A stretch of DNA of 57,301 nt from a virus. Its lineage: Duplodnaviria > Caudoviricetes. The stretch lies in the IMG/VR virus record IMGVR_UViG_3300043496_000172, positions 1-57,301 of that record. One strand, given 5' to 3'. How positions within the stretch are numbered: position 1 is the first letter of the stretch; the number at the start of each line of letters is the position of its first letter. The notes beneath the pieces were generated by a model. That model made no database searches and was not told where the DNA came from. It saw only the letters and a program-made list of their open reading frames with translations. The position numbers and the translations under genes were made by a program. Positions 2,292 through 57,301 of this stretch are shown here, one piece after another.

Positions 2292-2548
2292 CGACGCGAC
2301 AGGTCTACACACCGCTGCCCCAACTGACGCTGCATCATCGCCTCCGGCCTGCCCACGTGACGCTTCTAGCCAGTTCCCGTCAACCCATCTCTATCGACCT
2401 TTCTCTTCGTATCGTTTCAGATCACTCACCCGACGGAGCGGCTCCGAACCGGTCAAGCCATAACTTTTCATCGCATGTGACGGATCATCTCCCCTCTGCC
2501 CTTTGAGCGACTTGGCAGCCCACCTCATCCCGACTCTTCAGTCCCGAA
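2292..2548 (+). ncRNA. Pentamer array 1: YGAC-(NNNNC)n, about 8 units; putative guide RNA precursor
   Basis: 2431-2481 reads cGAC ggagC ggctC cgaaC cggtC aagcC ataaC ttttC atcgC atg tGAC; the RNA role is inferred. Confidence 0.7.
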
Positions 2549-2562
2549 TAAAAGGAAAGCAG

Positions 2563-3111
2563 ATGCCTGAACCGAATGTCACCGTGAAACGTGACTACGT
2601 CGCTGAAATACGACGCCTGGTAGATGAATACCGCAGTCGCCAGGAATACAACGCCGCGTCGGCTGCGATCGAGATCTACAACCAACTTCTCGGCACTGAC
2701 CGGGAGCTGCTGTACGGCTTCCTGGAAGGACAAGCTGTCCTGGCCATCCGAGGTGTGATGACCGCCGCTGATGCTGCGACCCGCTCCTACGCACGGAGCA
2801 ATGGACCACAGTCCGTGTTCTCAGATGCGGCGACCAAGGCGGAAGGAGGAGACCCTGAACCGCTACGACAGGGCTTCCTGCAAGCCTGGTACGTCGTCGA
2901 CAGTAAGTACTCCCGCAAGGAACTACGGAACATGAACTCAGACGACGTCCTGTTTGTGGCCGAACGATACCGGGAACGAGCCCGGGGAGGGCTCCGGGAA
3001 GCTGCCTTCATGGCAGCGCTGGCGAAACAAATCGGACAGCGGATGGTGGGAGAAGTGTTCAACAACGTCCAGCTGGCTGAGCTGCATACCACTGTTACTG
3101 GAAAGATCTGA
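2563..3111 (+). CDS. Hypothetical protein between arrays 1 and 2; candidate RAMP partner
   Basis: AAAGGAAAG RBS before ATG 2563; the TTG at 2503 lies within the array. Confidence 0.8.
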   Translation: MPEPNVTVKRDYVAEIRRLVDEYRSRQEYNAASAAIEIYNQLLGTDRELLYGFLEGQAVLAIRGVMTAADAATRSYARSNGPQSVFSDAATKAEGGDPEPLRQGFLQAWYVVDSKYSRKELRNMNSDDVLFVAERYRERARGGLREAAFMAALAKQIGQRMVGEVFNNVQLAELHTTVTGKI

Positions 3112-3236
3112 CTGACTCGTCGAACCTTGTCCTATCTACTCATCCGACTTGTCAACCCGGTTCCATCCGACGTCTCTTGTCCTGTCCCCACTGCTCCCGA
3201 CGACTACGCAACCCCGGTCACCTCAATCACAAATCC
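3108..3236 (+). ncRNA. Pentamer array 2, about 4 units, directly upstream of the RAMP gene
   Basis: tGAC tcgtC gaacC ttgtC ctatC tactC atc cGAC ttgtC aaccC ggttC catcC GAC gtctC ttgtC ctgtC cccaC tgctC. Confidence 0.7.
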
Positions 3237-3257: not shown

Positions 3258-4049
3258 ATGGTAGCGAAAAAGTCCAAGACTGAAGCCGAAACTGAAGGCG
3301 GACGAATCTTCCCGAACGGTTACAGCGTCTTCGGTGACTTCGATGCCGAGAGTTACCAGTACAACTACCTGTGCGAACTCACCATCGCCAACCTGGTTGG
3401 CGGCGTACCCACCGACTCGCAGGTGGCCACCGGCTGGTTGAAGTCCAAGCTTCAGGAGCCAGACGACATCCTGCGGGATCTGGTCGCGAAGACGATGCTT
3501 GAGCGCAACATCACCGCCGATGAAGCGACGAGAATCGTCAACGAGCTGAAGAACCTCAACGGATTCAAGCGACTTCTTCAGGATGGTCTCGGACACGAGG
3601 AGGCCGTAGAGAAGCAGCTGATGATTGAGGGTCGCCAGATCAAGGCTGCGTTGAAGGAAGCGGTGTCGGTCGCGGTTGCCGCCGACAAGCTGGACATGAC
3701 TGGTTGGGGCAAGACCCGCAAGTGGCTGTCGACGTACTTCCCGGAGCATGTGTTCGTGGTCGAGACGGAGGTGCCCCTTTTCCAGAAGGATGAGGAAGGC
3801 AACCTGGTCCCGGTGATGGCACCGACGGACACGTTGCAGCAGTTCGTCCACACGCACCGTGGATCCTCGATCCAATACCAGGAGCGCGTGGAAGACGCCG
3901 TCATCCGGTTCACGGTCGTGGCCGACCATCCCTTCAAGGAGAAGGAATGGGCGATGATTTGGACCACGGGGCAGCGTAACGGTCTCGGAGCGTCCCGGTC
4001 GCAGGGCTACGGCACCTACAAGGTGACGCGGTGGGAGCCAACCAAGTGA
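3258..4049 (+). CDS. Stand-alone Cas7/Csm3-like RAMP-superfamily protein
   Basis: N-terminal strand plus GG (ELTIANLVGGVP); IEGRQIKAALKEA resembling IPGSSLKGALR; ERVEDAVIRFTV; C-terminal Gly loop GLGASRSQGYGTYKV; AAAGGAG RBS. Confidence 0.85.
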   Translation: MVAKKSKTEAETEGGRIFPNGYSVFGDFDAESYQYNYLCELTIANLVGGVPTDSQVATGWLKSKLQEPDDILRDLVAKTMLERNITADEATRIVNELKNLNGFKRLLQDGLGHEEAVEKQLMIEGRQIKAALKEAVSVAVAADKLDMTGWGKTRKWLSTYFPEHVFVVETEVPLFQKDEEGNLVPVMAPTDTLQQFVHTHRGSSIQYQERVEDAVIRFTVVADHPFKEKEWAMIWTTGQRNGLGASRSQGYGTYKVTRWEPTK

Positions 4050-4051
4050 TC

Positions 4052-4357
4052 ATGTTTGCCAGTTTCCAGCGGCGGGTTAACCTCCGCCGCTGGAAGCGGA
4101 TCAGCAACGGCCGGCTGTGGCTTCCACGCATAGGTCACGACACCGCTCAGCACCGCGTCCTGATCATCCCCTTGTGGCTGACACCGTTTTTCCTTCAGTT
4201 CACCCTGGGAGAATGTTTCTGTATGGCCTGCGAACGTTGCCGGCTATACGTTCTGTTGGCTCAGGAGTACGGAGAGGATTTCTCGAAAGATGTTCAACAG
4301 CACCATTATCGGGTTCGTCTGCAAGCCTTGCAGGAACGCGAGACACAGAGAATGTAA
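4052..4357 (+). CDS. Hypothetical protein with CxCxxCxxC motif
   Basis: ORF immediately after the RAMP gene; CFCMACERC. Confidence 0.6.
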   Translation: MFASFQRRVNLRRWKRISNGRLWLPRIGHDTAQHRVLIIPLWLTPFFLQFTLGECFCMACERCRLYVLLAQEYGEDFSKDVQQHHYRVRLQALQERETQRM

Positions 4358-4985: not shown

Positions 4986-5005
4986 TGGAAGCCTAGGAGG
5001 AAACA

Positions 5006-5329
5006 GTGAACACGAACGAGATAGTGCTACCCGACGTTCTCAACGGCTTCAGCACCCAGGACCTGGTGGAGCTAGGAGCCCAGCTCACCGGTACCGGATT
5101 CACCGGAGTCGAATCCCGAGCCCTCATCGGCATGATCGAGCAGACCGCGAAGCAGGTCACCCTAGCCATGGTACCGCCGCTCCTCGATCAGGTCCGGCGC
5201 ATCAATGAGGCCCGGATGATGACGGTGTTCCAGCAGCTGCGCCTGCTACCGAACCAGTTCGGCTTCATCAGCCGCGAGCGAGTGATGCAAATACTTCAAA
5301 CGGTGTATTCCACGCCACCCAACGTGTAG
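5006..5329 (+). CDS. Hypothetical protein
   Basis: Strong AGGAGG RBS before GTG. Confidence 0.75.
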   Translation: MNTNEIVLPDVLNGFSTQDLVELGAQLTGTGFTGVESRALIGMIEQTAKQVTLAMVPPLLDQVRRINEARMMTVFQQLRLLPNQFGFISRERVMQILQTVYSTPPNV

Positions 5330-5335
5330 GAGTGA

Positions 5336-5683
5336 GTGATCATGACCGAGGAACGGATGTCCGCTCCTGACATGCTCGAATCAGCTGCGGACCTCATCGA
5401 AAACGTAGGCCATGCACGGAGATCCTATAAGTCTTTTGATGCGGAAATGCGTGTCACCGGATATTGCATCACGGGTGCAATCTACTTACGAGGTAACACC
5501 TTATTTGAAACAAAAGAAGCCATAGCAGCCGTGCGAATGGAAATCCTTCGACGCTTCCCGCATCGATACGATGGTGACATCGCCGTGTGGAACGACTTTC
5601 ACGCCAGTGACGGTGCCGAAGTAGTCGATGTGCTACGTCACGCTGCCAAGAATCTGCGAAACGAAACAGGAGAACAGAAATGA
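5336..5683 (+). CDS. Hypothetical protein (DUF6197-like actinophage family)
   Basis: LESAADLIE..G...YCITGAI...IAVWND...EVVDVLRHAA pattern. Confidence 0.65.
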   Translation: MIMTEERMSAPDMLESAADLIENVGHARRSYKSFDAEMRVTGYCITGAIYLRGNTLFETKEAIAAVRMEILRRFPHRYDGDIAVWNDFHASDGAEVVDVLRHAAKNLRNETGEQK

Positions 5684-5886
5684 AGAAGACCCTACTGATC
5701 ACCGGCAGCCTCGTCGCGGTGTATGTCCTCGTCCGCAACCGCAAGCTGATCGCCGACAAGGCCGCCGACATCGTCAACGCGGCGACGGAGAAGCTTGAAC
5801 TACTGAAGAGCAAAGTCGGCGAGGATGTCAGCGCCTTCCTAGCGGATCCCTCCTCCGGAGAGGCTCGCACTCGACAGGGCTTCTAG
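5680..5886 (+). CDS. Small membrane-anchored protein
   Basis: N-terminal hydrophobic helix; ATGA overlap. Confidence 0.7.
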   Translation: MKKTLLITGSLVAVYVLVRNRKLIADKAADIVNAATEKLELLKSKVGEDVSAFLADPSSGEARTRQGF

Positions 5887-5893
5887 GTTATCC

Positions 5894-5924
5894 GACCCGG
5901 TCACTGTGTGTGGCCGGGTCTTTC
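5894..5924 (+). terminator. Hairpin, possible terminator or processing site before array 3
   Basis: GACCCGGTCAC/GTGGCCGGGTC stem followed by TTT. Confidence 0.5.
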
Positions 5925-6398
5925 GACACATCGGATCTGATCGGCACAGCCCATACCTCATGACAGGACAGGTCTACGTTGTACGGTCCCTCTCTCTTCC
6001 TATGACTCGACCCCTCTCCGCACGCCTAAACATTTCCGACACCACACCTCACGCCTATACGCTTCCGACGCCACACCCCATGTCAGTGCGACAACTCGGT
6101 ACTGATCACCCTCCCCACATCCTTCGACCTTTCATATCACGTCCCTTCGGCCCGCTGTGACTTCACGTGTCGGATCCCCTCAAGCGACGTTCCAATCCCG
6201 ATCTTCGCGACATATCGTCCCTGGTCCAACCTATTGACGTGTCGGCCCTAACATCCACCCACTCCGTCCCCCTCCGACTGACTTCTCGACGCACATACAC
6301 GCCAACCCAACCCCTCGTCGACTTCTCGACACAACTCCTCCCGCATTGACTTTTCAACTCCCCTCACGTCGACTTCCCATCCCATTTCTGTCCCCGTC
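5924..6398 (+). ncRNA. Pentamer array 3, about 15 units
   Basis: cGAC acatC ggatC tgatC ggcaC agccC atacC tca tGAC ... cGAC ctttC atatC acgtC ccttC ggccC gctg tGAC ttcaC gtgtC ggatC ccctC. Confidence 0.75.
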
Positions 6399-6409
6399 TA
6401 GGAGAAACC

Positions 6410-6793
6410 GTGAAGAAAGACCCACATGCCACCGAACCGAAGGTGGAGCTGAACCACGAAACGTACCGGCTGTATGTCGAGGCACTCGACAACAGTGTGG
6501 CCTGGAAGAAAGAGGCTGAACGGCTTCAGGGCCTGCTGAACGAGGAAATCGGGGACGCCTACGCCGGCACGATCGACGGTCACAAGGTAGTGACACATCG
6601 ACCGATACAGACCTGGCGCATCAACGAGCTGGTCCGCGACTATCCAGAGCTGACTGCGCGCTACGTCGAACAGGTCACTGTGGAGAAGCTCGATATCCAC
6701 GAATTTCGGGCACATCACAAGGAAATCGCGGACAAATACCAGTCACGAAGCTTCCGGAACCTAGGCCCAGGCGAGGAAGTAGATCTAGCATGA
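6410..6793 (+). CDS. Hypothetical protein resembling the C-terminal region of YqaJ-type phage nucleases
   Basis: AGGAG RBS; EIGDAYAGTIDGHKVVT ... KYQSRSFR pattern. Confidence 0.55.
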   Translation: MKKDPHATEPKVELNHETYRLYVEALDNSVAWKKEAERLQGLLNEEIGDAYAGTIDGHKVVTHRPIQTWRINELVRDYPELTARYVEQVTVEKLDIHEFRAHHKEIADKYQSRSFRNLGPGEEVDLA

Positions 6794-6797
6794 TCCG

Positions 6798-7286
6798 ATG
6801 GACCAGTTCACTGTCACCGTCTACGGTTTGCCGGCACCGCAGGGCTCGAAGCGTTTCATGGGCATGTCGAAGGCTGGTAAAGGGATCATCGTCAACACGA
6901 GCACTGCCCTGACACCGTGGCGTAACGAGGTAGTGTCTGTGTCAACGAGGGAGCTGGACGCAATGGGGCGTCCGGCTCCCTTTTCTTGTGCGGTGATCCT
7001 GGAGGCGCATTTCAGTTTCACGAGACCCAAGTCGGTCAAGAGATCCAACCGTCCACATATGTCGATTGCTCCGGATTTGTCGAAACTTGTACGAAGCACC
7101 GAAGACGGACTCAAGGACGCGGGCGTTTTCGTGGACGATGCACTGATTGTGGCCATCTACTGCTCCAAGCAGTACGTGGACGAAGGGGCCTACAGCCTGG
7201 ACCGGCAGGGCTGTCGCATCGTCGTACGTCCGGTAGTACCATGGGAGATGCCCCCAGGGAGGGGGAGAGTTGAGCTGGAGGCATAA
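6798..7286 (+). CDS. rusA: RusA-family Holliday junction resolvase
   Basis: PAPQGSK, PDLSKLVRSTEDGL and DDALIV motifs. Confidence 0.92.
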   Translation: MDQFTVTVYGLPAPQGSKRFMGMSKAGKGIIVNTSTALTPWRNEVVSVSTRELDAMGRPAPFSCAVILEAHFSFTRPKSVKRSNRPHMSIAPDLSKLVRSTEDGLKDAGVFVDDALIVAIYCSKQYVDEGAYSLDRQGCRIVVRPVVPWEMPPGRGRVELEA

Positions 7287-7636
7287 TGACAGCCGGCAAC
7301 GCAGTCCTCATCTTGGTGACCGCGCTCCTGAGTCATGTCAGCGGCTTCTGTATGGCCCGCTGGGACCAGTGGAAATTACAGCGCAAGATGAGACCCATCC
7401 CGCTCCCCGGCATGAGCCAGGAGGAGCACGAGACTCAAGTTTTCATCGACAAGCTACATGACACCACCCAGGACGATCTCGCCCTGGACCAGTACGAACC
7501 CAAGACAGAACGGCAACGACGGGCAAAAGTCCTGGCCAGTATCGAACCTGCACAGATCACCTCAGCTGCACACCTGCGGTACGACGCGATGCGTCGAATC
7601 CAGGACGCACTTATCGAACGTCAACTTTCGAAGTAG
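7286..7636 (+). CDS. Hypothetical membrane-anchored protein
   Basis: TAATG overlap; N-terminal hydrophobic segment. Confidence 0.65.
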   Translation: MTAGNAVLILVTALLSHVSGFCMARWDQWKLQRKMRPIPLPGMSQEEHETQVFIDKLHDTTQDDLALDQYEPKTERQRRAKVLASIEPAQITSAAHLRYDAMRRIQDALIERQLSK

Positions 7637-7649
7637 AAACGAGAAGCTT

Positions 7650-7871
7650 TTGAAGCAGAAGACATTCCGGGCATTCGGCTACTGCACGGAATGCCGGAAA
7701 TACATGTACCTGAGCCGTAGCGCGGCAAAAAAGGTCAGTGCACAGCATCATGGGGAACACAAGAGCGAATACCGTTGCCCTATCAATGACAATTTCTGGC
7801 ATGTAGGTGGCCTGGATCCCCGAGTCATAGAAGGGAAGACCAGCCGACGTCGCCGATACGATGCAGCCTGA
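7650..7871 (+). CDS. Small zinc-finger-like protein
   Basis: CTECRK...H...YRCP...WHVG; start uncertain (TTG 7650). Confidence 0.6.
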   Translation: MKQKTFRAFGYCTECRKYMYLSRSAAKKVSAQHHGEHKSEYRCPINDNFWHVGGLDPRVIEGKTSRRRRYDAA

Positions 7872-8249
7872 CGTGCCCGCCCAGCCCGCCACCTGTACGA
7901 CAATGCAGCCGCCGTTCCAGTCACATCACCCGACACATCGCGCCCGGTCACGTCGACGCACCCCTTCTTCTCGACCCTTAGCCTTACCGTCCCACACCGA
8001 CACACCTCGCCAGTTCGAAACCGATCCCTACGACTACTCGCCTTCCATCCCAACTGACTCGCCAACCCGCTCTCCACCCCCACTGACTCGCCAAGTCGGC
8101 TCCACGCCAGGCCACCCGACTATCCGACTCCCGCCTGTTCGACTACCCGCCTCCATCGCCTACTCACTTCCCACCTGTTCGACCGTCCATCGCCGTTCCG
8201 ATCCTGTTCGACCATTCTTCTCGATGCGCACTCAGGTCACTCCCCCTCA
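7869..8249 (+). ncRNA. Pentamer array 4, about 12 units, at the junction of the converging gene blocks
   Basis: cGAC acacC tcgcC agttC gaaaC cgatC cctaC GAC; tGAC tcgcC aagtC ggctC cacgC caggC caccC GAC. Confidence 0.7.
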
Positions 8250-8260
8250 CGCCGAGGCCC

Positions 8261-8557
8261 CTACCGACGGTAGCGGCCTCGGTTTGTGTGTGGTGGAAGG
8301 GTGTCCCAGATAGGAGTCGGAACAGGTTGCGGCCACAGAACCTGTTCCATCATGTCCATGGCCCGACGGTGCGCCCACCACTGATCCCGAGCAGAGACGT
8401 CGAAGGAGACTTCCAGCGTCTGGTTCGCGGGCTCTTCGACTTCGGGACTGTTGAACCACCAGTGCCGGTCACACCACAGGTACATGGCCTCCAGGATCGA
8501 GCTGGAGGCCAGATCTGAGGCCAACACGGTGAACGTGTAGCGACGGTGGCAGGTCAC
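8261..8557 (-). CDS. Hypothetical protein
   Basis: Last ORF of the minus-strand block; 4-nt overlap with 8554-8895. Confidence 0.65.
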   Translation of the reverse strand: MTCHRRYTFTVLASDLASSSILEAMYLWCDRHWWFNSPEVEEPANQTLEVSFDVSARDQWWAHRRAMDMMEQVLWPQPVPTPIWDTLPPHTNRGRYRR

Positions 8558-8895
8558 TTCGAGTCCAGGTCGACGGGCGCAGACGGGATCAGCATCGACA
8601 GCTGAGCAATCCGCTCGTGGAGCTGCTTGTTGTCTTCCCGTAGCTCAAGCAGCTGCCCGTTGGACAGCTGCTTGATCTCGGTCGAGTCACGTTTCAGGTC
8701 ATTGACCTTCGCCCAGCCAAACGCACCCGCCATCAAAAGGACAACGGGTGCGAGACCGGACATGATGCCTACAACATCCAGGCCAATGGCGGCCAACCAG
8801 ATAACTGTGGTGGCCAGGATGACGGACAGGCCGAGGATAAGGACCACCTGTGGTGGGGTCACATTTTTCATTTCGGCTGCGACCAGTGGAGACAT
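8554..8895 (-). CDS. Two-TM membrane protein, holin-like
   Basis: Two hydrophobic helices followed by a coiled-coil tail. Confidence 0.5.
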   Translation of the reverse strand: MSPLVAAEMKNVTPPQVVLILGLSVILATTVIWLAAIGLDVVGIMSGLAPVVLLMAGAFGWAKVNDLKRDSTEIKQLSNGQLLELREDNKQLHERIAQLSMLIPSAPVDLDSK

Positions 8896-8951
8896 GAAAA
8901 CGTCACACCTTTAGTATGTCAAATACATCCCTCTTGCAGGCAGTATGTCAT

Positions 8952-9266
8952 TTAGCTGGGCAAGTAGCCGATTTTGCGGTGCCGCTCGGCGATCTTCTCC
9001 GCAGTTTCCAGGATGACTTCCTCAGCCTTGAAGCCGAGGCTCTCTATCACCATCAAGGCACACATGACCACGTCGCCCAGTTCCCGGGCTACGTCAGCCT
9101 TGCTGCCGTAGTAGCCCTTCCGAGGCTTACCGCCAGTCATTCCCAGCCAGGCATCAGAGACTTCGCCGACCTCCTCGACCAACATGAGGATCCGATCCGG
9201 AATGTCTACGTTGTTATCACTGAGCCAACGGGCAGTAATCCGGGCCAGTGGATACAGATCGTTCAT
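8952..9266 (-). CDS. MazG-like nucleotide pyrophosphohydrolase
   Basis: LVEEVGEV...ELGDV motifs. Confidence 0.88.
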   Translation of the reverse strand: MNDLYPLARITARWLSDNNVDIPDRILMLVEEVGEVSDAWLGMTGGKPRKGYYGSKADVARELGDVVMCALMVIESLGFKAEEVILETAEKIAERHRKIGYLPS

Positions 9267-9416
9267 ACCGTCCTCTGGTTGCAGTCTCTCTCGTGATTGT
9301 CAGCTCTCAGTTCGAGCCGGTACTGGTCGCTGCCGGAGCATGCGTAGCAGCAGTGTTCGCATTCATACCTGAACCAGCCCTCGGATTCTTCGTAGACGAC
9401 GCCCAGAGTGGTGCCG

Positions 9417-9656
9417 TCAGGCAGATACCTTGCCATCGCCTGCCGTCCGAGCCAGTCGACGCAGCCGGATCAGTTCCTCAACTACGGCATCAATCTGTCG
9501 GTCGTCGTAGCCGTCAGTGAGTCCCTCAAGGACGATGTCTGGCATAGCCAGGAAGTCGAAGTGCGCATAGTGCTCCTCGGTTTCTTCGACCCAGTACGGT
9601 GCCCAGCTACAGTCCTGGTAGCGCTCGCAGCCACATCGACACGGTTCGGTACTCAT
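9417..9656 (-). CDS. Hypothetical protein
   Basis: ATGA overlap with the upstream glycosyltransferase (MSTEPC start). Confidence 0.5.
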   Translation of the reverse strand: MSTEPCRCGCERYQDCSWAPYWVEETEEHYAHFDFLAMPDIVLEGLTDGYDDRQIDAVVEELIRLRRLARTAGDGKVSA

Positions 9657-38451: not shown

Positions 38452-39173
38452 TACCGTCCCCCTTCGTTCACGATGACCAGATCACATCGACAGTTGATGA
38501 CTTCGTCAGCGGAGCCCGTCGGGTCACCCGGAAACATGAGCATGTCGTTGCCGACCCGGAATGGCTGGTACAACGGAACAGTGGTGCCGTCTACCGCTCG
38601 GTGCTCGGCTCGGACCCGGTCGTCATGTTCGGTGCGCCAACGCTTCTGTAGAAGTCGGCCAGTGACCCGAGACTGTTCCAAGCCCGCAGCAGTAGTTCCA
38701 GCTCCATAAGCACGGGTGGTCTCGGTGACTGCGATAACTCGTGCGCGATTTGTCCAGCGTTCAGATCCACTCGTTGCAAGAACGGAATCAACGCGTTCTG
38801 CAATGCGAGGCACGTTCTCACCTGAGTTGACTCCATCAGCGATCTCCGCAAAGACGAGGTTGTATACCTCGTCCGGGATTCGCACGAGGAAATTCTGAGT
38901 CTGCGCCAACTGAGCCATAACGAAAGAGTGCCGGGATACCGGTGGCACATCTGTCGCCTCACTCCAGGCGCCCATCGCAATCTGGCCGATGGTGCTCAGA
39001 ATCGTGTCAGTGTCCCAGCTGTCCTGCGCCTGGTACACGCCCGTTGCATCAGGCATGCCGCCCCAGTCCCGGAACGGGGCCAGGACTTTGTCGCGGGCAG
39101 CGTTGATGAACCGGTCGAGCGCTCGCTTCACTACACCGAAAAGGTTCTTCTCATTTTGATCACGGGTCGGCAT
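38451..39173 (-). CDS. MuF/gp7-like minor head protein
   Basis: RARVIAVTE, KRW...DDRVRAEH...DG, FPGDP...EVINCRC. Confidence 0.9.
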   Translation of the reverse strand: MPTRDQNEKNLFGVVKRALDRFINAARDKVLAPFRDWGGMPDATGVYQAQDSWDTDTILSTIGQIAMGAWSEATDVPPVSRHSFVMAQLAQTQNFLVRIPDEVYNLVFAEIADGVNSGENVPRIAERVDSVLATSGSERWTNRARVIAVTETTRAYGAGTTAAGLEQSRVTGRLLQKRWRTEHDDRVRAEHRAVDGTTVPLYQPFRVGNDMLMFPGDPTGSADEVINCRCDLVIVNEGGR

Positions 39174-41070
39174 GAGTGAACCCTCGGTGTAGCGCGGCCA
39201 GGAGTAGGCGAGGCTCATGCTCCAGGCCACGTTCCAGCAGCATGGAGCAGTAGCGGTGCAAGGTAACGGCTAGCTCCTCGTTTTCCTCTGCTTCACCGAG
39301 GTACACGGTCAGGTGATCCCAGGCCCCTTGAAGCAGCTTCGAGGCACCACCGACCGGAATAGCGACCTTGGTGTGCAAGGAATACACCGGAACGTCCGAA
39401 TGGGTTCGGTGATGATTGCCCACCAGCCTCTTCCCGGCCACTTCCAGTGCCCGGATGACAGCAACGTTGAGTACCCGGAACGTGGCATCGTCTACCCCTG
39501 GGCCAGCAGCTGCGGTGATACCCGGTGGCTGGCTGGCGTTACTGGTGATCGGACCACCTGGTGTGGAGATGGCGGAACTATCCTGCGGCATGGGCTCGGG
39601 ACCGGTTGGCTGGATCCCGGTCGGGGGTGCTGGCGGTGGAGGCGGACCCGCTCCAGGTTGCCCGGGCTGGGCAATGACAGTGTTCGCCGGCAGGATCGAC
39701 TCGGAGATACCGGCGGCCTTGCGTACGGCCGGGTTCTGGAACAGGTTCGGGTCCCGCTCCATGAGGGTCCGGATGAATTTCCGGGTGTCTTCTTCCTCGC
39801 TGGGCTTGTCGGTGAGAGCGAAGTCGCCGGCAAGAATGACCGCTTCGTCGGAGATGATGCCTTTCTCGTTCAGGTTGAGGGCATCTTTCAACCGTTCCGG
39901 GCGTACCGTCAGCGGTGCTGTGTCGTACCAGAAGACGTACCGTTCCGGGTCTTCCTTGATGGCCTTCAGCGCTGGACCGAGATACGCATGCGTGAGGGCG
40001 TCACAGATCCGAGTCATGAGAGGCTCGATATGGATCTTGATGTTCGCTTCCTCGACGTGCCAGGCGCTCCAGTGGTTACTGTCCCCCGTGCCGGTAAGGA
40101 TCTCTGGAGCTATATCCATGGCCAGGGCGAACCGTCGGATTGCTTCTGCCCGAAGCTCAAGTGCCTGCTTACTGAGTTCGGAACCGAAGCTGATCAGCTC
40201 GATCTTCCCGAGGGCATCTGCTGGCATCTCTACGAACATGGGCACTACCCCGGCCGCTGTTCCCTCACCCTTGAGGCTTCGGGAACCTGCCTTCATCATC
40301 GCCTGGGTAAGACCCTCGGCTCCGGGGATGGAGACTTCGTTCCCGTCATCTGGAAAAGAAGCTTCCTTCGGAATCGGGACCATGCCAGCGGAAACCAGGC
40401 GGCTGTCAATCTGAGCGAAAACGTAGCGGGTTAGCCGCTCGATCTCCCACAGCATCGGCATCGCAGCCCGGGTCGGGGAATCAGCCCAGAGGCTTCGGCG
40501 AGGATGTGGTGTCCAGACCCGGATGACGATGTCCTTATCAAGATCCAGAACATCCTGCGTTCCATCCGGATACAGCTGATACACATTGCCACGCCAACGT
40601 TTCAGCTCCGAACAGCTGACCACATACCACTGGTCAGCATCCTGATCCCGGACTGCTCCACGCCCCACGATGTAGCAGTCCCCGGCCACCGTCAGGTTGA
40701 TGGCGAGCATCCGCATCGCCTCAGACATCGCCGCCGGGGAACCGAACAGGTTCTCCGCGATCGCAGCGACCTTCGCCTTCTTGGTCTCCTGCTGTACGCG
40801 CCCGTTCTTGTCAACATCAGCGACATATACGCGCACCCGAGAACACGCCGACCCGACCCAGTTCGTCGCGAACCGAAGCTCACCGATGATGTCGTACAGC
40901 CGCCACACTTCCTGCTGCCAGGAATCGTCACCGAACTTGTACGTCTGCCAGCCGAGCCCCTCCAGGTTTCGGATACGGGCAGCAGAAGCAATCAACGGTT
41001 CCAGAATCGACTCGTGGTTTTCCGGCTCCGGTTCGGCAACTGGTGGCTTCGGCCGGCGGAATCCTGCCAT
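39160..41070 (-). CDS. Portal protein
   Basis: WQQEVWRLYDIIGELRF, RVWTPHP, ADSP, LAMDIAPEIL.G, NHWSAW. Confidence 0.9.
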   Translation of the reverse strand: MAGFRRPKPPVAEPEPENHESILEPLIASAARIRNLEGLGWQTYKFGDDSWQQEVWRLYDIIGELRFATNWVGSACSRVRVYVADVDKNGRVQQETKKAKVAAIAENLFGSPAAMSEAMRMLAINLTVAGDCYIVGRGAVRDQDADQWYVVSCSELKRWRGNVYQLYPDGTQDVLDLDKDIVIRVWTPHPRRSLWADSPTRAAMPMLWEIERLTRYVFAQIDSRLVSAGMVPIPKEASFPDDGNEVSIPGAEGLTQAMMKAGSRSLKGEGTAAGVVPMFVEMPADALGKIELISFGSELSKQALELRAEAIRRFALAMDIAPEILTGTGDSNHWSAWHVEEANIKIHIEPLMTRICDALTHAYLGPALKAIKEDPERYVFWYDTAPLTVRPERLKDALNLNEKGIISDEAVILAGDFALTDKPSEEEDTRKFIRTLMERDPNLFQNPAVRKAAGISESILPANTVIAQPGQPGAGPPPPPAPPTGIQPTGPEPMPQDSSAISTPGGPITSNASQPPGITAAAGPGVDDATFRVLNVAVIRALEVAGKRLVGNHHRTHSDVPVYSLHTKVAIPVGGASKLLQGAWDHLTVYLGEAEENEELAVTLHRYCSMLLERGLEHEPRLLLAALHRGFTHADP

Positions 41071-41075
41071 GTGCG

Positions 41076-41366
41076 CTACTCCCTGTCAGCCGCTCGAAGA
41101 ATCAATGCGCACGCCATTGACCCGGCCGGGATAGAGAGCACAGCCAGGAACCAGACGGGGTGCCAGTAATAAACGACAGGAAGCAGGATCGAAAACCACA
41201 TCGACAGGCACCACGGCGCACAGAGAATGAGTTTCGAAATCCAGGCGGAGGTTCCGAAGCGGTTCAGGATGGCGCGACGGAACGGAAGAGTGAGGGCGTC
41301 CTCAGCGATGAGACGGCTCATGCGCGCTGCTGCGAGCGTGGCCGTGATCAAAGCGAGTATAAGCAC
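41076..41366 (-). CDS. DUF1360-like membrane protein
   Basis: ARMSRLIAED...PFR...CAPWCLSMW; typical position before portal. Confidence 0.75.
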   Translation of the reverse strand: MLILALITATLAAARMSRLIAEDALTLPFRRAILNRFGTSAWISKLILCAPWCLSMWFSILLPVVYYWHPVWFLAVLSIPAGSMACALILRAADRE

Positions 41367-41424
41367 GTCTCATACTCTAATGGTTCTTACTGCGCAAGGG
41401 ATACATGCGGAACAGTTTGGACAG

Positions 41425-41454
41425 TTGCCACCGTCTCCGCCCCAGGGGTAGGGT
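41425..41454 (+). promoter_or_regulatory. Putative SigA-type promoter TTGCCA-18-TAGGGT with CCCCAGGGG, pointing into array 5
   Basis: Matches TTGNNN/TANNNT; array starts about 10 nt downstream. Confidence 0.65.
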
Positions 41455-41463
41455 GCAGAGGTT

Positions 41464-42319
41464 CGACCTGACCCTTCTTCTCAGCGTCTACCCGACCCCG
41501 GTCACACCGACTCACCTACCCAGCACACCCCATCCGACCCTGTCAGTCGACTCGCCGGCCCTCCTTCACCTCTGACTAGCCCTCTCTGCTCCAGTCCGAT
41601 CCGTTCGACTCTCCTTTTCCCTGCCATTTCCAACCGCTTCCTACGACTGCCTCTTCCAGTTCGGATCGACCCTGTCAGTCGACACTGTGGCCCATACCCG
41701 CTCGTTGTCCTCTCGCATCTTCCGACCGAGCACTCCACCTCACCACCGTCTCCTCTCACCTATCGATCGACTGCCCTCTTCGCCCCCTTTCCTTCTGACG
41801 ACACGTCTCAACCCCCTCCATGCACACGCCGACTACACCCAGCCTCTCGTATCCCATCTATGCCTATCGACAAATCAGCTCGTATCCATACCCATCCCAT
41901 CGACGAATCAGATCGCCTCGCAGCTGCCCAACCGACACGCCGTGCCGTTCTCCGACCGCTCCGCACTGACATTCCACTTCATCCTCATCTCGGCGCGGTC
42001 CCGATCCGACGGAGCGCATCACCTCGCAACCGTTTCTGACCCGTCCCACCTCTGCTGACTTCCCCGGTCACCCCTGAGCACTTCCATTGACAAACCCGCA
42101 CGTATCAGTCCTCCTCGACTTCGCACGTCATGCTCGCCTCTCGTCACTTCAGCTGACTCTTCTGCCGGCCACTTCCCACGCCAGCTCTCCCGACCTGCCG
42201 TTACGCAACTTCCCTGCCCAGTCCAGCATCCCTGCCGACTTCCCACCGACCTCTCACCTCCGACGACGATGCGATCCCGGTCATCAACTTCCCGCATCGC
42301 CTCGACCACCCAGTCCCTC
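41464..42319 (+). ncRNA. Pentamer array 5, about 28-30 units, antisense to the structural operon
   Basis: 41830-41904: cGAC tacaC ccagC ctctC gtatC ccatC tatgC ctatC GAC aaatC agctC gtatC cataC ccatC ccatC GAC. Confidence 0.8.
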
Positions 42320-44584
42320 TCAACCCAGTCCCCCCCACTGTGGTTGAAGATTCGACAGGTCGTAGTACGACTGATCCAGGTTCCACTCTTGCGAGGAAGG
42401 GCTAGCGATTCTCATGATGCGACGTTCACCGGCCATCAGATGCAGTACGCCGTGAACCATGGCATCCATGCGGTCTGGCGACTCCCGAGTGGACTCGGGA
42501 GCGAAGATGACCATTTCATTTTCGAGTTCATCCCACTCGCCGACGAGGTGGAGTTTTCCTTGCTCACAACGCATGGCAACTGGTTCGGCTCTTGTCCGTT
42601 TGCCATGTTTCGCATGCACAGCTTTCATTGAAGGAGTGCTATGTTCAGGGAACAGTCCGAGGTTCATCGATTCTTTGAAGGCATCCTCCAGAACCTCAGC
42701 CAGATACCGTTTACCAAGGTTCTCTTCATAAACCAGAATGTCAGCGTTCCACTTGGCTACTGCCCGCCACGCTGCAAGAGCTGCTGTTCGACCACTCTGC
42801 TCAACGGAGGCGTCTTCAAGTACATAAATGTCGTTGTTCACGGTCCGCGCGACTACCACGATGCCGAACAGGTCGTCTTCTCCTGTCAGGTTCGGGTCAA
42901 CACCAACCACGGTCGAGATGATGTCCTCGGGGATCACGGTCACCCGGCCTCGGATTATGTCCATCCGTTTGAATAGGCCACCGACACCAAGCTCCAACAG
43001 TTTCCCGTACAGCTCCTGCTGGCCAAGGTCCGTGTCCGCATACCGGATCTTCAGTTCCCGCAGGACATGCGAGGACAGGTTCATCGCGTTGTCGAACGTG
43101 GAACCACCCATCACGTGGATCGTCCCGTCGTCCCGCTTCACCCACTCCTGCAACAGCTTGATCGGTTTCGGGGTAGTGGTGGCGAAGCAGCGAGGATGGT
43201 CGTCGATCAGGTCGGTACGCAAGGAAGGAAGGATCCCCTCATACCAGCTCTCATACGACTTCGGCCATTTGCAGTTATGTACCAGGAGACCGCCCGCGAA
43301 GAACTGCGGAACTCCCTGCACAGTCAGGTCATAGACCGGAACTGGATGGCAGCCCTTGTGCACGGCGACGACGCGCGTCGGCTTGCCGACGTCCGGCGAA
43401 TCGGCCTGCACACAGAGGGGTGCAGTACTTTGCTCGCATACCTGTGCTGAAAAATGTTTCGCCACATTCTGCGCACACCACTGCCCGGGGTTGTCGCTGT
43501 GTCCACATGTTTCGCAGCCCCCGACTCGTTCGATCAGATCGGTCAGCCACCCAGGCAGCGTCGGTTCTACTGATGGCAGTGAGTCTGCGGTGCTCTGAGA
43601 CGGTGAGGCATTCGAGGTTGTCCGGCCGGTTGTCCCAGCGCTTCCCGTTGATGTGGTTGATCTCGTGGTCTGCTGGGATTTCTCCGTAGAGCTTGGCCCA
43701 GAGACTTCGGTGGAGCAGGGATCCGCTGCGGTTGAGGTGGTATCCCATGCGTTTGTTGAAGTACCAGCGTTCGCCGTCCCAGTCGTAGAAGGCTGGCGCT
43801 TCGCTGGGTACTGGTTCTTTTGCGGAAGCCATGTCACCATGGTATCGCCAGGTTGTACCTGATCTGCGCGGATCCAGCCGTGCTCCTCGGTCCATACACG
43901 ATGATTCGGCGTGACTGTGACGGCGGCATCTTCGGTCAGGAGAACCAGAACTTCGGCTGACTTCTCAGTGAGTCCAGCGGATTGGACCCGACGGTAGCCA
44001 TGGAGAGTCGTAACGTAATCCTGCGTAGTAACGCATTCGATCGGAACAACGCCTCGGTCGGTGGCGATAGCGGATCCGTAGGCGATGCAGATCTCGTCTA
44101 CCCAAGCACCCGCAGCGTTGTATCCACGCCCTACGTCTTCGTCATCCGCGCCCTCGGCGTAGATCCTGGAGCCGTTCGGGAACAAGACCATCGGCCTCGG
44201 GGACTGCTTGTACCGGAAGTCGACCCCACGACGGGTAAGTACACGCAGGAGCCCAGCTGGTCCCTCCATACAGATGGTGCGTGTATCCGCGAGCGTTTCC
44301 CCAATCAAGAGCCATTCCGTTGGTTGCTGGTTTCGGTCGAATGGGTGCTGAAGAACTTTCTCTACGAGCCATTCGGCTCCAGCTCGACTCTTTCCCCATC
44401 CTCGGCCGGCGAGTGCGAGTGCAACGAGCCAGTTTCCCGGTGGTGGCACCTGCTCGGGACGTGACACCCACCACCATTCACCTCGGTTGATTTCTTCAAC
44501 GAGTTGGAGGGGCAAGGATTCCAGCCAGTCCAAGCGCTCGCGCTCTGGAAGCAGGGCTACTCGTTGCGCGGCAGATAGGGACAT
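42320..44584 (-). CDS. terL: Terminase large subunit (intein-containing)
   Basis: Walker A AGRGWGKSR, Walker B WVDE, TTTPKP, QELYG, VGVDP, SPDRMDA. Confidence 0.95.
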   Translation of the reverse strand: MSLSAAQRVALLPERERLDWLESLPLQLVEEINRGEWWWVSRPEQVPPPGNWLVALALAGRGWGKSRAGAEWLVEKVLQHPFDRNQQPTEWLLIGETLADTRTICMEGPAGLLRVLTRRGVDFRYKQSPRPMVLFPNGSRIYAEGADDEDVGRGYNAAGAWVDEICIAYGSAIATDRGVVPIECVTTQDYVTTLHGYRRVQSAGLTEKSAEVLVLLTEDAAVTVTPNHRVWTEEHGWIRADQVQPGDTMVTWLPQKNQYPAKRQPSTTGTANAGTSTNAWDTTSTAADPCSTEVSGPSSTEKSQQTTRSTTSTGSAGTTGRTTSNASPSQSTADSLPSVEPTLPGWLTDLIERVGGCETCGHSDNPGQWCAQNVAKHFSAQVCEQSTAPLCVQADSPDVGKPTRVVAVHKGCHPVPVYDLTVQGVPQFFAGGLLVHNCKWPKSYESWYEGILPSLRTDLIDDHPRCFATTTPKPIKLLQEWVKRDDGTIHVMGGSTFDNAMNLSSHVLRELKIRYADTDLGQQELYGKLLELGVGGLFKRMDIIRGRVTVIPEDIISTVVGVDPNLTGEDDLFGIVVVARTVNNDIYVLEDASVEQSGRTAALAAWRAVAKWNADILVYEENLGKRYLAEVLEDAFKESMNLGLFPEHSTPSMKAVHAKHGKRTRAEPVAMRCEQGKLHLVGEWDELENEMVIFAPESTRESPDRMDAMVHGVLHLMAGERRIMRIASPSSQEWNLDQSYYDLSNLQPQWGGLG
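43274..44089 (-). mobile_element. Intein (272 aa) inserted just after Walker B
   Basis: Starts CIAYGSAIAT; block B VTPNHRVW; ends VYDLTV...FFAGGLLVHN followed by +1 Cys. Confidence 0.93.
43329..43832 (-). CDS. HNH homing endonuclease nested out of frame within the intein
   Basis: LLHRSLW...GEIP...EINHINGKRWDNRPDNLECL...H; C-terminal CAEC...YCTPLC. Confidence 0.85.
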   Translation of the reverse strand: MASAKEPVPSEAPAFYDWDGERWYFNKRMGYHLNRSGSLLHRSLWAKLYGEIPADHEINHINGKRWDNRPDNLECLTVSEHRRLTAISRTDAAWVADRSDRTSRGLRNMWTQRQPRAVVCAECGETFFSTGMRAKYCTPLCAGRFAGRRQADARRRRAQGLPSSSGL

Positions 44585-50396: not shown

Positions 50397-51230
50397 ATGA
50401 AGAACCCCTACAAGGTCCCGCTCCATGTTCTGGTTTTTCATGGTGATGGGATCCCTGACGATCAGTCCCTGATAGACCTTCAGGGCGACATCCAGGAGAA
50501 CGGGCTCAAGGTTCCCGTCCTCATCGACCGGACCACCAACACGGTCCTCGACGGCTCCCGGCGTATCCGGGCAATGATCAACCTGGGCTGGACACATTGC
50601 CTAGTGTATGGAGTAGAAACCTTTGACGAGGGAGTTCAATACCTCGACAAGGTAAGGAAGAACCCTCGGCTACCGGCGGGACTTTCTGTTACTACAGGAA
50701 GGATCTGGCGCTACTACTGCGACTTCCAGAACCTGATCGACCTGCGCCAGAAGCAATTGAAGAATCGACGTATAGGCGTTTCTCGTGATGTACACCTGGA
50801 ACGGCTGGCCCCGTCTCGTCGCCTGCTAGCGGAAGCTATCGGCACGAGCGAAGGTCAGATGGTTGCCCTGATCAGCACCTACAAGACCGCACAGTTCCAC
50901 GAGAACCCGGATATCCGGGCATTCGCGGCAGGTCTCACAGAGGAACTGGACCAGGGGAAGATCACCTGCTACTCGGCTCGGCATCGACTCCAGAAGGCCC
51001 TCCATGAAAAGCCGGAGGGATCCATCGCCACCGCGTCTGCGCAACGAGAAACATTGGGCATGATCATTTCTCAGCTCAATGGTGTTGCTCGGGGCATTGC
51101 CGCATTCAACGGAATCAGTGACGGATTGAGCGCGGAAGAGCTGGCGGAATACGTCAATTCCCTCCGTAAGCCACTCGCCGCTATCCGCAGTCACCGTAAC
51201 CAGATACAGAAAAGGATCAATACCGGATGA
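50397..51230 (+). CDS. ParB/Srx-like N-terminal domain protein
   Basis: LQGDIQENGLKVPVLID...VLDGSRRIRA. Confidence 0.8.
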   Translation: MKNPYKVPLHVLVFHGDGIPDDQSLIDLQGDIQENGLKVPVLIDRTTNTVLDGSRRIRAMINLGWTHCLVYGVETFDEGVQYLDKVRKNPRLPAGLSVTTGRIWRYYCDFQNLIDLRQKQLKNRRIGVSRDVHLERLAPSRRLLAEAIGTSEGQMVALISTYKTAQFHENPDIRAFAAGLTEELDQGKITCYSARHRLQKALHEKPEGSIATASAQRETLGMIISQLNGVARGIAAFNGISDGLSAEELAEYVNSLRKPLAAIRSHRNQIQKRINTG

Positions 51231-52087
51231 ACCAGGAACAGGAAACAGTGAACAGCAACGCTGCCTTCGAAAGGTGGGCGAAGAGCCACCCCTTCATCAC
51301 CGAAGAGGTACTGGTCTCCAACCTGACCATCGACCGGCGAGTGCAGCGCACCGGCCTTAACCTGCCCAAGGTTGAACGCATGGTGAAGAAGTTCAACCCC
51401 AGCTCGCTGGGTGTCGTGACCGTGTCACGACGCAAGGATAAGTCGATGATTGTGATCGACGGTCAGCACCGCTGGGAAGCCACCCGGCGAGTCACTGACA
51501 ATGAAGGCTTGCTGCTGTGTCACGTGTTCGAAGGCTTGGAACTGGCCGAGGAAGCGCAGATGTTTCTCGACCTTAACGACACGTCCAAGCCCCCCGTGAT
51601 CGACCAGTTCAAGGTGAGCCTTCAGGCCGATTCACCAGGTGGCGAAGAGGCCCGGGAGATCTCCCGGATACTGCTCCAATATGGCTGGAAGGTCAGTGCT
51701 ACGGCGGCGGATGGCAACGTGAACGCCGTCCAGGCAATCTCCAAGATCTATCGGCTGTCGCTCGAAAAGGAAGCTGACCCCAACCTGCTGGCGATGACAT
51801 TCCTTGTCGTCACCCGCGCCTGGGGAACTAACCGGATGGCGGGTCAGGCCCCCATGGTGGAAGGTATCGGCCGCATGTTCGCCGAATACGGCTCCCGGAT
51901 CGACACCGACCGCCTGATCAGTGTCATGAAGAGCTACAAGGGCGGGGCGCAGTCCCTGCTGAGTGAAACGTCGCAGCTGGCCCGCCTGTCTCACTCGCGG
52001 CATTCAATGGCCCTGGCAACTGCCCTGGTCAACGAATACAACCGAGGTCTGCGGACCCGGACGCTGGAAGCCTGGCGTCAACGGTAA
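51227..52087 (+). CDS. ParB-like (DUF6551-type) protein
   Basis: IDRRVQR...LGVVTVSRR...VIDGQHR...EEAQMFLDLN. Confidence 0.8.
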   Translation: MNQEQETVNSNAAFERWAKSHPFITEEVLVSNLTIDRRVQRTGLNLPKVERMVKKFNPSSLGVVTVSRRKDKSMIVIDGQHRWEATRRVTDNEGLLLCHVFEGLELAEEAQMFLDLNDTSKPPVIDQFKVSLQADSPGGEEAREISRILLQYGWKVSATAADGNVNAVQAISKIYRLSLEKEADPNLLAMTFLVVTRAWGTNRMAGQAPMVEGIGRMFAEYGSRIDTDRLISVMKSYKGGAQSLLSETSQLARLSHSRHSMALATALVNEYNRGLRTRTLEAWRQR

Positions 52088-56114: not shown

Positions 56115-56125
56115 ACCCTCCACAA
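56097..56125 (-). promoter_or_regulatory. Putative promoter TTGTGG-17-TACAGT
   Basis: Directly upstream of the XRE gene. Confidence 0.6.
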
Positions 56126-56460
56126 GGACTCAGGACACAGGCAGCCAGGACTCAGGACACAGCGCACCTGGCCTGGAATCAAGATCATGACGCGAACATG
56201 ACGCGAATGCTGTCATGAAACCGAAAGTTCTTCCTTTACCGTATACATACTTGATCTTGATTCCTCTTTTCTATACCCCTTTTTCCTAACTCTCAGAGAC
56301 ACAACTGTCATAAATACTAAAAAAAAAACATCAAACCTGGACAAATTGGTACAGGATTCGGACATTTCGAGTGACACTTCGATGACACTTAAACTGTCAC
56401 TGTCCTGGCGAGTGACGCGAACCAGTGACACTTCAGGGTCAAGTAGCCGCGAAACCGTCG
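56126..56460. other. Candidate replication origin: AT-rich tract with short direct repeats
   Basis: GGACTCAGGACACAG x2, CATGACGCGAA x2, TGACACTT x3, AT-rich 56220-56340. Confidence 0.45.
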
Positions 56461-57039: not shown

Positions 57040-57145
57040 GACATGACTCATAGGTGGGGGATCATGACTCATGATCGTTGATCTTGATGATCAAGATCGT
57101 TGATCATGGATGAGTGATCATGAGTAGTTGATCATGATCATGAGC
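57040..57145. repeat. Low-complexity TCATGA/TGATCA palindrome cluster
   Basis: Dense overlapping GATC and CATG words. Confidence 0.7.
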
Positions 57146-57301
57146 CTGAATGGAGCGCTCGCTCCAGGATTCAGGGCAGGGTGCGGCCTCGGAATCCATG
57201 CTACACCCCCCCCTGGGGATGTGCCAGGAGGGGGGAGAGGTGGTGGGGAGGTTGATTGGGGCTACCTGAGGGGACGGGGGCGGATGGGTCAACGGTTCTG
57301 C

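Follow-up and report, generated by a model that had tools for sequence, protein, structure and literature searches.

VIPR systems, which are related to CRISPR, combine a RAMP protein (Vipr) with 5-nt repeats and were described in preprints of 2026 (10.64898/2026.04.26.720920, 10.64898/2026.04.26.720927 and 10.64898/2026.10.15.759431). According to the portions of these preprints available to us, the genes for Vipr, a minimal RAMP, are found mostly in phages and prophages, and the guide of the protein, the vrRNA, is a run of 5-nt repeats in which GGY is fixed and NN variable, followed by a structured tail (10.64898/2026.04.26.720920). The same preprints state that each repeat is bound by one protomer, with GGY buried and NN paired with DNA, every third target base being skipped; in the SUSP1 Vipr both G1 and G2 are recognized via specific contacts (10.64898/2026.04.26.720927). 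The natural targets are given as satellites and rival phages, binding silencing these rival mobile elements, and seven VIPR types are distinguished, with NNNGG, YNNNG and NNNNG as alternative repeats and with staggered tail-less arrays, vap genes and orphan arrays (10.64898/2026.04.26.720920). A use of vrRNAs as decoys has been described as well (10.64898/2026.10.15.759431). So far as this material extends, the characterized examples are Gram-negative systems with GGY-NN guides.

Here we consider a C-rich intergenic tract, positions 5924-6398, in an uncultured phage that is represented by an IMG/VR record, complete as deposited (57,301 nt; the window) and with an estimated completeness of 87%. 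DNA similarity of the record to cultured phages was not found. We conclude that the tract is very probably one of five guide-RNA (vrRNA) arrays of a VIPR system in which the product of gene 3279-4049 serves as Vipr. The locus is filed as VIPR because of the fold of this protein, its G-rich loop motif, a chain of profile matches, the type of array and synteny. VIPR is an already known kind of system, in print since April 2026, and the record adds to it a member from an uncultured phage whose closest Vipr relatives are found in genomes of Actinomycetes.

The repeat tract and its counterparts

The tract lies within the intergenic region 5887-6409, between a small gene (stop at 5886, then a hairpin) and gene 6410-6793, the gene downstream of which is a RusA resolvase. 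Its base content is 41% C and 17% G, with a strongly negative GC skew, and GAC splits it into units that are mostly of 20-42 nt, with a few of 4-8 nt. All statistics for the tract were compared with a null of 1000 dinucleotide-preserving shuffles, none of which reached the observed lag-5 autocorrelation of C (0.236, against -0.002 ± 0.045; for the value of 0.24, z is 4.9 against mononucleotide shuffles), the number of GAC followed by three in-phase C (13, with 1.07 ± 1.0 expected) or by four (12, with 0.42 ± 0.64 expected, at +5, +10, +15 and +20 from the C of GAC), or the number of YGAC (19, against 11.3 ± 2.1). Plain GAC occurs 20 times, 19 of them after C or T, against 14.3 in the shuffles, 6 of the 1000 reaching that count. 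The five-base rhythm and the YGAC punctuation that an earlier, sequence-only reading of this DNA had pointed to are therefore real. Direct repeats of the CRISPR type, longer than 20 nt, were found neither by TRF nor by direct reading of the stretch, and a CRISPR array was rejected as a candidate given that no identical direct repeats >20 nt are present and that cas1, cas2 and other cas genes are absent from the neighbors and the larger genes annotated in the record. One near-duplicate pair occurs at 6021-6077 (period 29, 85% matches; n=1 pair). A search of Rfam with positions 5000-9500 gave two matches, both at chance level.

A sliding scan of skew and period, together with a count of the pattern, establishes that the record holds five tracts of the same architecture, all C-rich on the + strand (Table 1). 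The coordinates of the earlier reading cover one of the five tracts only, T2. Combined, the tracts span 2216 nt (3.9% of the record) and comprise 83 GAC anchors; 64 of their units are 18 nt or longer. On the + strand of the record there are 50 occurrences of GAC with four phased C, 39 of them in the four large tracts and 4 in T1b; the - strand has 8, all outside the tracts. The largest tract takes up most of the 1.2-kb gap between the genes for the terminase large subunit (42320-44584, - strand) and the portal (39160-41070, - strand). The promoter-like pair ahead of it, TTGCCA-18-TAGGGT, received no call in a consensus promoter scan.

Table 1. Arrays, genes and signals of the putative VIPR locus, in order of position
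Feature	Position	Strand	Description
Array T1	2293..2540	+	9 GAC anchors; after divergent intergenic region, before accessory-like gene
Candidate accessory (vap-like) gene	2563..3111	+	182 aa, mostly alpha-helical (predicted)
Array T1b	3110..3230	+	6 GAC anchors; between accessory-like gene and vipr
3' end of T1b	3110..3230	+	CCGGTCAC motif, then ribosome-binding site of vipr
vipr-like gene	3279..4049	+	256-aa RAMP protein, predicted Cas7-like fold, C-terminal G-rich loop; sole copy in the record
Hairpin	4059..4099	+	-31.7 kcal/mol; 3' of the vipr stop codon; without U tract
Hairpin	5894..5920	+	-23 kcal/mol, then TTT; after the stop of gene 5680-5886; CCGGTCAC inside; head of T2
Array T2	5925..6400	+	20 GAC anchors; 4-7 pentamers per unit, ~15 units; reaches as far as the ribosome-binding site of gene 6410-6793
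Array T3	7870..8251	+	14 GAC anchors; 3' of the final + strand early gene (end 7871)
Terminator-like hairpin	8251..8292	+	-27.4 kcal/mol; U-rich run on + strand only; downstream of T3
Promoter-like pair	41425..41454	+	TTGCCA, 18 nt, TAGGGT; found by eye; 10 nt before first GAC of T4
Array T4	41465..42336	+	33 GAC anchors; largest tract

When 78 GAC anchors of the four large tracts are aligned on their G, C is found at +7 in 85%, at +12 in 85%, at +17 in 69% and at +22 in 73% of cases; immediately 5' of GAC stands C (73%) or T (26%), and 5' of the periodic C mostly a pyrimidine. The arrays of the record have a single near-invariant base per pentamer, those of most relatives two. GAC appears once per unit, in phase with the pentamers that follow, and slips of phase fall just 5' of each GAC. 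The tracts are without 3-nt periodicity and are therefore non-coding. As for the variable positions, 60 units of at least 23 nt from the five tracts were compared at 16 non-scaffold positions, giving a mean pairwise match of 4.60/16 that equals the column-shuffled value of 4.60, with 11/16 for the best pair of units (shuffled maxima 10-14), so that the description of the units as mostly unique is borne out. Pentamers within a unit share position-specific composition to a greater extent than with other units of the same locus (z 3.1-5.1; 0/300 shuffles), which hints at a constraint on the variable bases; since local duplication could also cause such coherence, we do not count it in favor of a code.

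Several other sites in the record deserve mention. The motif CCGGTCAC is present in 10 copies, with 3.9 ± 1.9 expected (0/100 shuffles), those on the + strand being at 3214, 5897, 7944, 8465, 41498 and 42064, of which five are at the edges of arrays or inside them; a similar motif, CCAGGTCAC, is located 5' of the vipr ribosome-binding site in two related loci (L047 and L127). Among ORFs of at least 110 aa there is no gene in the ~400 nt from the start of the portal gene to T4 (41071-41464), and a small - strand ORF may be present at ~41100-41340. Two adjacent ParB-like genes (50397-52087) are found beside an endolysin-like gene and a primase-helicase. Toward the right end a short repeat cluster at 56120-56210 contains duplicated GGACTCAGGACACAG-type and duplicated CATGACGCGAA motifs (~56130-56205), and at 57040-57160 dense GATCATGA-like words (~57040-57150) are followed by a very G-rich terminal 100 nt. 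These two clusters may be regulatory, attachment or end sequences.

The RAMP gene, its relatives and their arrays

Searches of Pfam and PHROGs with the protein encoded by 3279-4049 returned nothing significant, and a relative gave a sub-threshold match to the Cas6 C-terminal part. The AF2 model of the protein (pLDDT 77.7, pTM 0.74) was compared with the PDB by Foldseek, and the top matches are all Cas7-type RAMPs, 65 of them at E<=1e-3, with type VII Cas7 as the best (E 4e-6) and Csm3 and Cmr4 among the others. A RAMP-type C-terminal glycine-rich loop is visible in the alignment of the family, and matches of the family to PDB sequences are weak, 7 of the 10 among those listed corresponding to the Csm4/Cas6 loop. 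Comparison of profiles connects the family to the SUSP1 Vipr in two steps, from the 3279-4049 family to a second protein family (family 2; 91% probability, E 1e-6) and from there to SUSP1 Vipr (YP_009199429.1; 97.6%, E 5e-12). Direct comparison of the 3279-4049 family profile with SUSP1 Vipr was not significant (1.3-1.6%, E 0.03-0.04), and the predicted homology between the two rests on this two-step chain together with the modeled fold.

The family is large (2272 representatives at E<=1e-3; 503 at E<=1e-30), and its sole homologue in a cultured phage is that of Microcystis phage Mae-JY09, with 28% identity. In that genome (PP395641.1; L131, 3700-4090) a C-rich, CGAC-rich tract lies directly 3' of the vipr-like gene, at the right end, and gene and tract are annotated as hypothetical only or are unannotated. 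The accessory-like protein (2563-3111) had no fold match at E<=1e-3. Scans of viral contigs with single proteins of the two downstream genes, tblastn of gene 6410-6793, and tblastn of a family 2 protein against cultured phages all gave no match.

Viral contigs were also scanned for the array itself, using three successive GAC units as the pattern, and at least 119 loci were obtained and sorted by their largest tract. Among the matches listed, 27 loci have long C-rich GAC(NNNCC)n tracts like those of the record (C-type) and ~21 have (GACNN)n runs; repeats with periods of 15 or 30 nt among the remaining listed loci are probably coding. In the 815 units of the 27 C-type loci listed, C is found at +7 in 87%, at +6 in 63% and at +12 in 85%, and the distances between successive GAC, taken modulo 5, are 3 in 250, 4 in 254 and 0 in 177 of 783 cases. 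The scaffold is thus kept while the remainder varies, in agreement with the earlier view that the tract does not look like a decayed microsatellite. Clustering of ORFs from the listed loci places the 3279-4049 family beside C-type arrays in 17 of 28 sources, the record included, and two other families, 1 and 2, adjoin (GACNN)n arrays. SUSP1 Vipr matches these two families with probabilities of 97.0% and 97.6%, and they match each other with 98.4%.

The array is on the strand of the gene in 17 of the 17 viral loci that have the gene, its start usually being no more than ~100 nt away. With the closest subgroup as query, species-representative genomes yielded 8 bacterial loci, 7 of them in Actinomycetes (Nocardiopsis, Streptosporangium, Pedococcus, Streptacidiphilus, Streptomyces, Kineosporiaceae) and one in a Burkholderiaceae MAG, and in 8/8 the array is directly upstream of the vipr-like gene and on its strand. 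A homologue of 2563-3111 is found directly upstream of array and vipr in 9 of 12 close relatives, so that the order accessory-like gene, array, RAMP gene is conserved, as in the record. In the Streptacidiphilus locus (L127, ~7500-7790) a run of N interrupts the array and the count of units is incomplete.

Pairs of related loci were compared with regard to turnover of units, the absence of which had been named in the sequence-only reading as an outcome that would speak against a library of guides. Between L047 (a viral contig) and L128 (a locus in a Streptomyces genome) vipr is 88.5% and the accessory-like gene 85.8% identical, whereas the arrays align with 51% identity and 131 gap columns, one unit appearing to be common to both. 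In a second pair (L022 and L046) the flanks are 86-87% identical and the megablast alignment breaks at the array. These alignments show that the arrays of relatives turn over, but they do not amount to evidence of directed acquisition, since genes generally diverge more slowly than non-coding DNA.

The (GACNN)n loci have features of their own. Long runs with short conserved tails between them are found in L013, L039, L042, L048, L054, L062 and others, and the runs adjoin proteins of 186-280 aa that belong to phrog_4652 ("unknown function") and are clear homologues of SUSP1 Vipr (97% probability). On the basis of sequence, phrog_4652 is thus a family of Vipr proteins whose scaffold is GAC where that of SUSP1 is GGY. 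In loci of family 1, which include L006, L039, L045, L085, L088, L096, L097 and L107, GAC and the vipr-like gene lie on opposite strands in 9 of 11 cases, the gene's strand reading GTCNN; either the second base of the scaffold is free in this family (G, A or T) or its arrays are antisense.

Predicted guides, strand and alternative explanations

By analogy with SUSP1, the transcript of an array would be bound by one Vipr protomer per 5-nt repeat, with the fixed base or bases held in pockets of the protein and the variable bases presented, and the resulting filament would use a gapped code to read a rival mobile element's double-stranded DNA, silencing that element. Each unit, from one GAC to the next (4-8 pentamers), would then be one short guide, giving ~64 usable units in the five arrays. 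Transcription and processing of the arrays, the strand concerned, the pairing code and the targets are matters that we infer.

A search for targets covered the record outside of the arrays and all fetched loci, ~1.1 Mb on both strands, with shuffled guides as controls. Of 42 units parsed from the record, the 30 guides with 5 or more pentamers were used with 3-4 informative bases per pentamer and skips of 0-3. Their best identities are the same as those of shuffled guides. In the local ~1.1 Mb set neither a sample of 150 C-type guides nor 43 guides of the (GACNN)n type exceeded shuffled ones either; the latter, linked to proteins close to SUSP1 Vipr, were a presumed control on the assumption that the published 1-nt-skip code applies to them, and their blank leaves the power of the search undemonstrated. 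The one match of 100%, obtained with a skip of 2, is probably due to a duplicate array that had escaped masking. An exact scan of viral contigs with one guide and a no-skip code gave 0 matches. Because the presumed control was also blank, the local ~1.1 Mb set is uninformative and the blank result is not evidence against targeting. The sequence-only reading had proposed a spacer-like library with gapped targets and a comparison with shuffled units under several codes. The library fits the VIPR family, given the adjacent Vipr-like RAMP gene, the 5-nt scaffold and synteny, and no target was found for it; the comparison, run locally, produced no code that outperforms shuffled units. Of the kinds of target that it had suggested, "host defence genes" and "this genome" have no support from this search, which included the record and whose power was undemonstrated.

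With respect to the strand, we lean toward transcription of the gene's strand, reading GAC-NN and then (N-Y-C-N-N)n. In the published register this reading puts the invariant C at the published Y3 place. In all 25 loci (17 viral and 8 bacterial) array and vipr point the same way, and in relatives the arrays often take up, to within a few nt, the space between the accessory-like gene and vipr, which are themselves co-directional; T1 directly follows the divergent intergenic region, and T3 is located between the last + strand gene and a terminator-like hairpin that is specific to the + strand. The opposite possibility, which concerns the strand only and which we hold to be appreciable though rather less than probable, is that the VIPR system is the same and functional vrRNAs are made from the - strand, antisense to vipr. 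Read in this way the arrays become (G-R-N-N-N)n ending in GTC, with G in 85% of cases followed by a purine, like GG or GA; the fixed G would sit in the published G1 pocket and the type would be that of the NNNNG/NNNGG repeats. All scaffolds given in the available preprint text are indeed G-based (GGY, NNNGG, YNNNG, NNNNG), and SUSP1 Vipr is reported there to make specific contacts with G1 and G2. Moreover, T4 is within the - strand late operon (terminase/portal) and could be transcribed in the antisense direction without a promoter of its own, and in family 1 loci the GAC strand is the one opposite to the gene in 9/11. Weighing against an antisense RNA are the promoter inside vipr that it would need and the collision with the operon, the co-orientation in 25/25 loci, the terminator-like hairpin after T3 that would act on the + strand only, and the arrays of SUSP1 and family 2, which are read in the sense of the gene. 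TANNNT promoter-like hexamers upstream of 42 arrays, scored in both orientations, are not enriched and favor neither strand. With C on the gene's strand and G-based scaffolds in the published text, either the chemistry differs here or the RNA comes from the other strand.

Readings in which the tracts are not guides at all fare less well. The variable positions look random among units and the search of ~1.1 Mb gave no targets, as might be expected if the tracts were RNA or DNA scaffolds that bind Vipr or another protein and do not guide it (a regulatory sponge, a C-rich leader that loads Rho, or decoy arrays), their variable bases being unconstrained. Rho-utilization sites resemble C-rich, G-poor RNA with YC dinucleotides, which counts for such a scaffold, although a Rho site requires neither a 5-nt phase nor punctuation by GAC. 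Decoy use of vrRNAs, too, appears in the preprint text, where however the variable bases are the guide in characterized VIPR members. Arrays turn over while relatives keep the flanking genes, and pentamers cohere within units (z 3.1-5.1, with the reservation about local duplication), and we regard a scaffold without guide function as improbable. Lower still is the probability of repeats that act at the level of DNA, as origin iterons, ParB centromere sites or primase sites (GTC on the - strand). The phage does encode ParB-like proteins (50397-52087) and a primase-helicase, and the tracts share one DNA orientation whatever the direction of neighboring genes. The unit spacings of 23, 28, 33 and 38 nt, on the other hand, follow a 5-nt linear register with no helical face, the arrays travel with the RAMP gene across 25 loci, and ParB or primase genes do not figure among the 25 most widely shared neighbor families in a general survey of neighbors. 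Least credible, and in our estimate close to negligible, is a decayed microsatellite or a low-complexity coding sequence. Long open frames do cross the tracts, for example 7861-8313, because A- and G-rich stop codons are lacking, but there is no 3-nt periodicity in them, and the scaffold persists in 815 units of 27 other loci as the rest varies. A Rho-utilization site, a TRAP-like RNA ring, primase clusters, G-quadruplex or i-motif structures and origin iterons had been candidates as well and were dropped once the RAMP gene was found.

Returning to guides read from the gene's strand, we put forward, tentatively, a VIPR branch of actinomycete phages in which guides are co-transcribed with the vipr operon and anchored by an invariant C (N-Y-C-N-N), GAC marks the start of each guide, and the guides are short and tail-less (4-8 protomers), ~64 of them in five arrays, one of which would have its own promoter directed against the late operon.

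Comparison with described systems

In this phage 3.9% of the genome is given over to ~64 short predicted guides, whose five arrays have a reduced scaffold and use GAC as delimiter. If the gene's strand is indeed the one transcribed, scaffold chemistry is not fixed to G, recognition would be unlike that by the published GGY pockets, and callers of G-based arrays would miss or mis-orient such arrays. The scaffold code of Vipr would itself evolve and much shorter filaments would suffice for targeting, with relevance for the engineering of shorter guides. Microcystis phage Mae-JY09, a cultured relative with an array of the same kind 3' of its vipr-like gene, is a possible bench model.

The closest characterized counterpart is the SUSP1 system, which the record resembles in having a lone phage-encoded RAMP gene with a candidate accessory gene and 5-nt repeat arrays on the gene's strand, both up- and downstream of the genes; the arrays of the SUSP1 locus read GGYNN on that strand. 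The "solo" vrRNAs of the preprints, as there described, are comparable to the arrays of the record that are remote from vipr. Differences are found in the repeats (GGY-NN in SUSP1; here, on the gene's strand, N-Y-C-N-N and a single GAC in each unit), in the guides (9-16 repeats and a ~40-nt structured tail for SUSP1 vrRNAs as given in the available text, against units of 4-8 repeats and no tail), and in the repertoire, which is 4 vrRNAs for SUSP1; here there are five dispersed arrays, three of which lie well away from vipr, with ~64 units of 18 nt or more. Repeat runs in the record are not followed by a conserved structured 3' tail; the units abut with only GAC between them. The proteins are remotely related, 256 aa for that of the record and 195 aa for SUSP1 Vipr, and the accessory-like protein is apparently unrelated in sequence to that of SUSP1 as far as tested.

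The staggered, tail-less NNNGG/NNNNG variants of the preprints are similar in their 5-nt repeat, their one or two fixed bases and their abutting guides, and the reverse complement of the arrays in the record, GRNNN, fits the NNNNG variants. The GAC/GTC delimiter is a feature of the record that goes unmentioned in the available text on these variants. The (GACNN)n arrays linked to phrog_4652 share with those of the record a homologous protein superfamily, the 5-nt period and the GAC motif; they differ in that every pentamer consists of GAC and two variable bases and that tails separate the runs, whereas in the record GAC comes once per unit. Finally, the backbone of class 1 CRISPR-Cas effectors (Csm3/Cmr4 and type VII Cas7) has in common with the predicted Vipr of this phage the fold of the protein and a filament that kinks its guide at a fixed period, which is 6 in those effectors and 5 here, where long direct repeats are missing and the system is borne by a phage.
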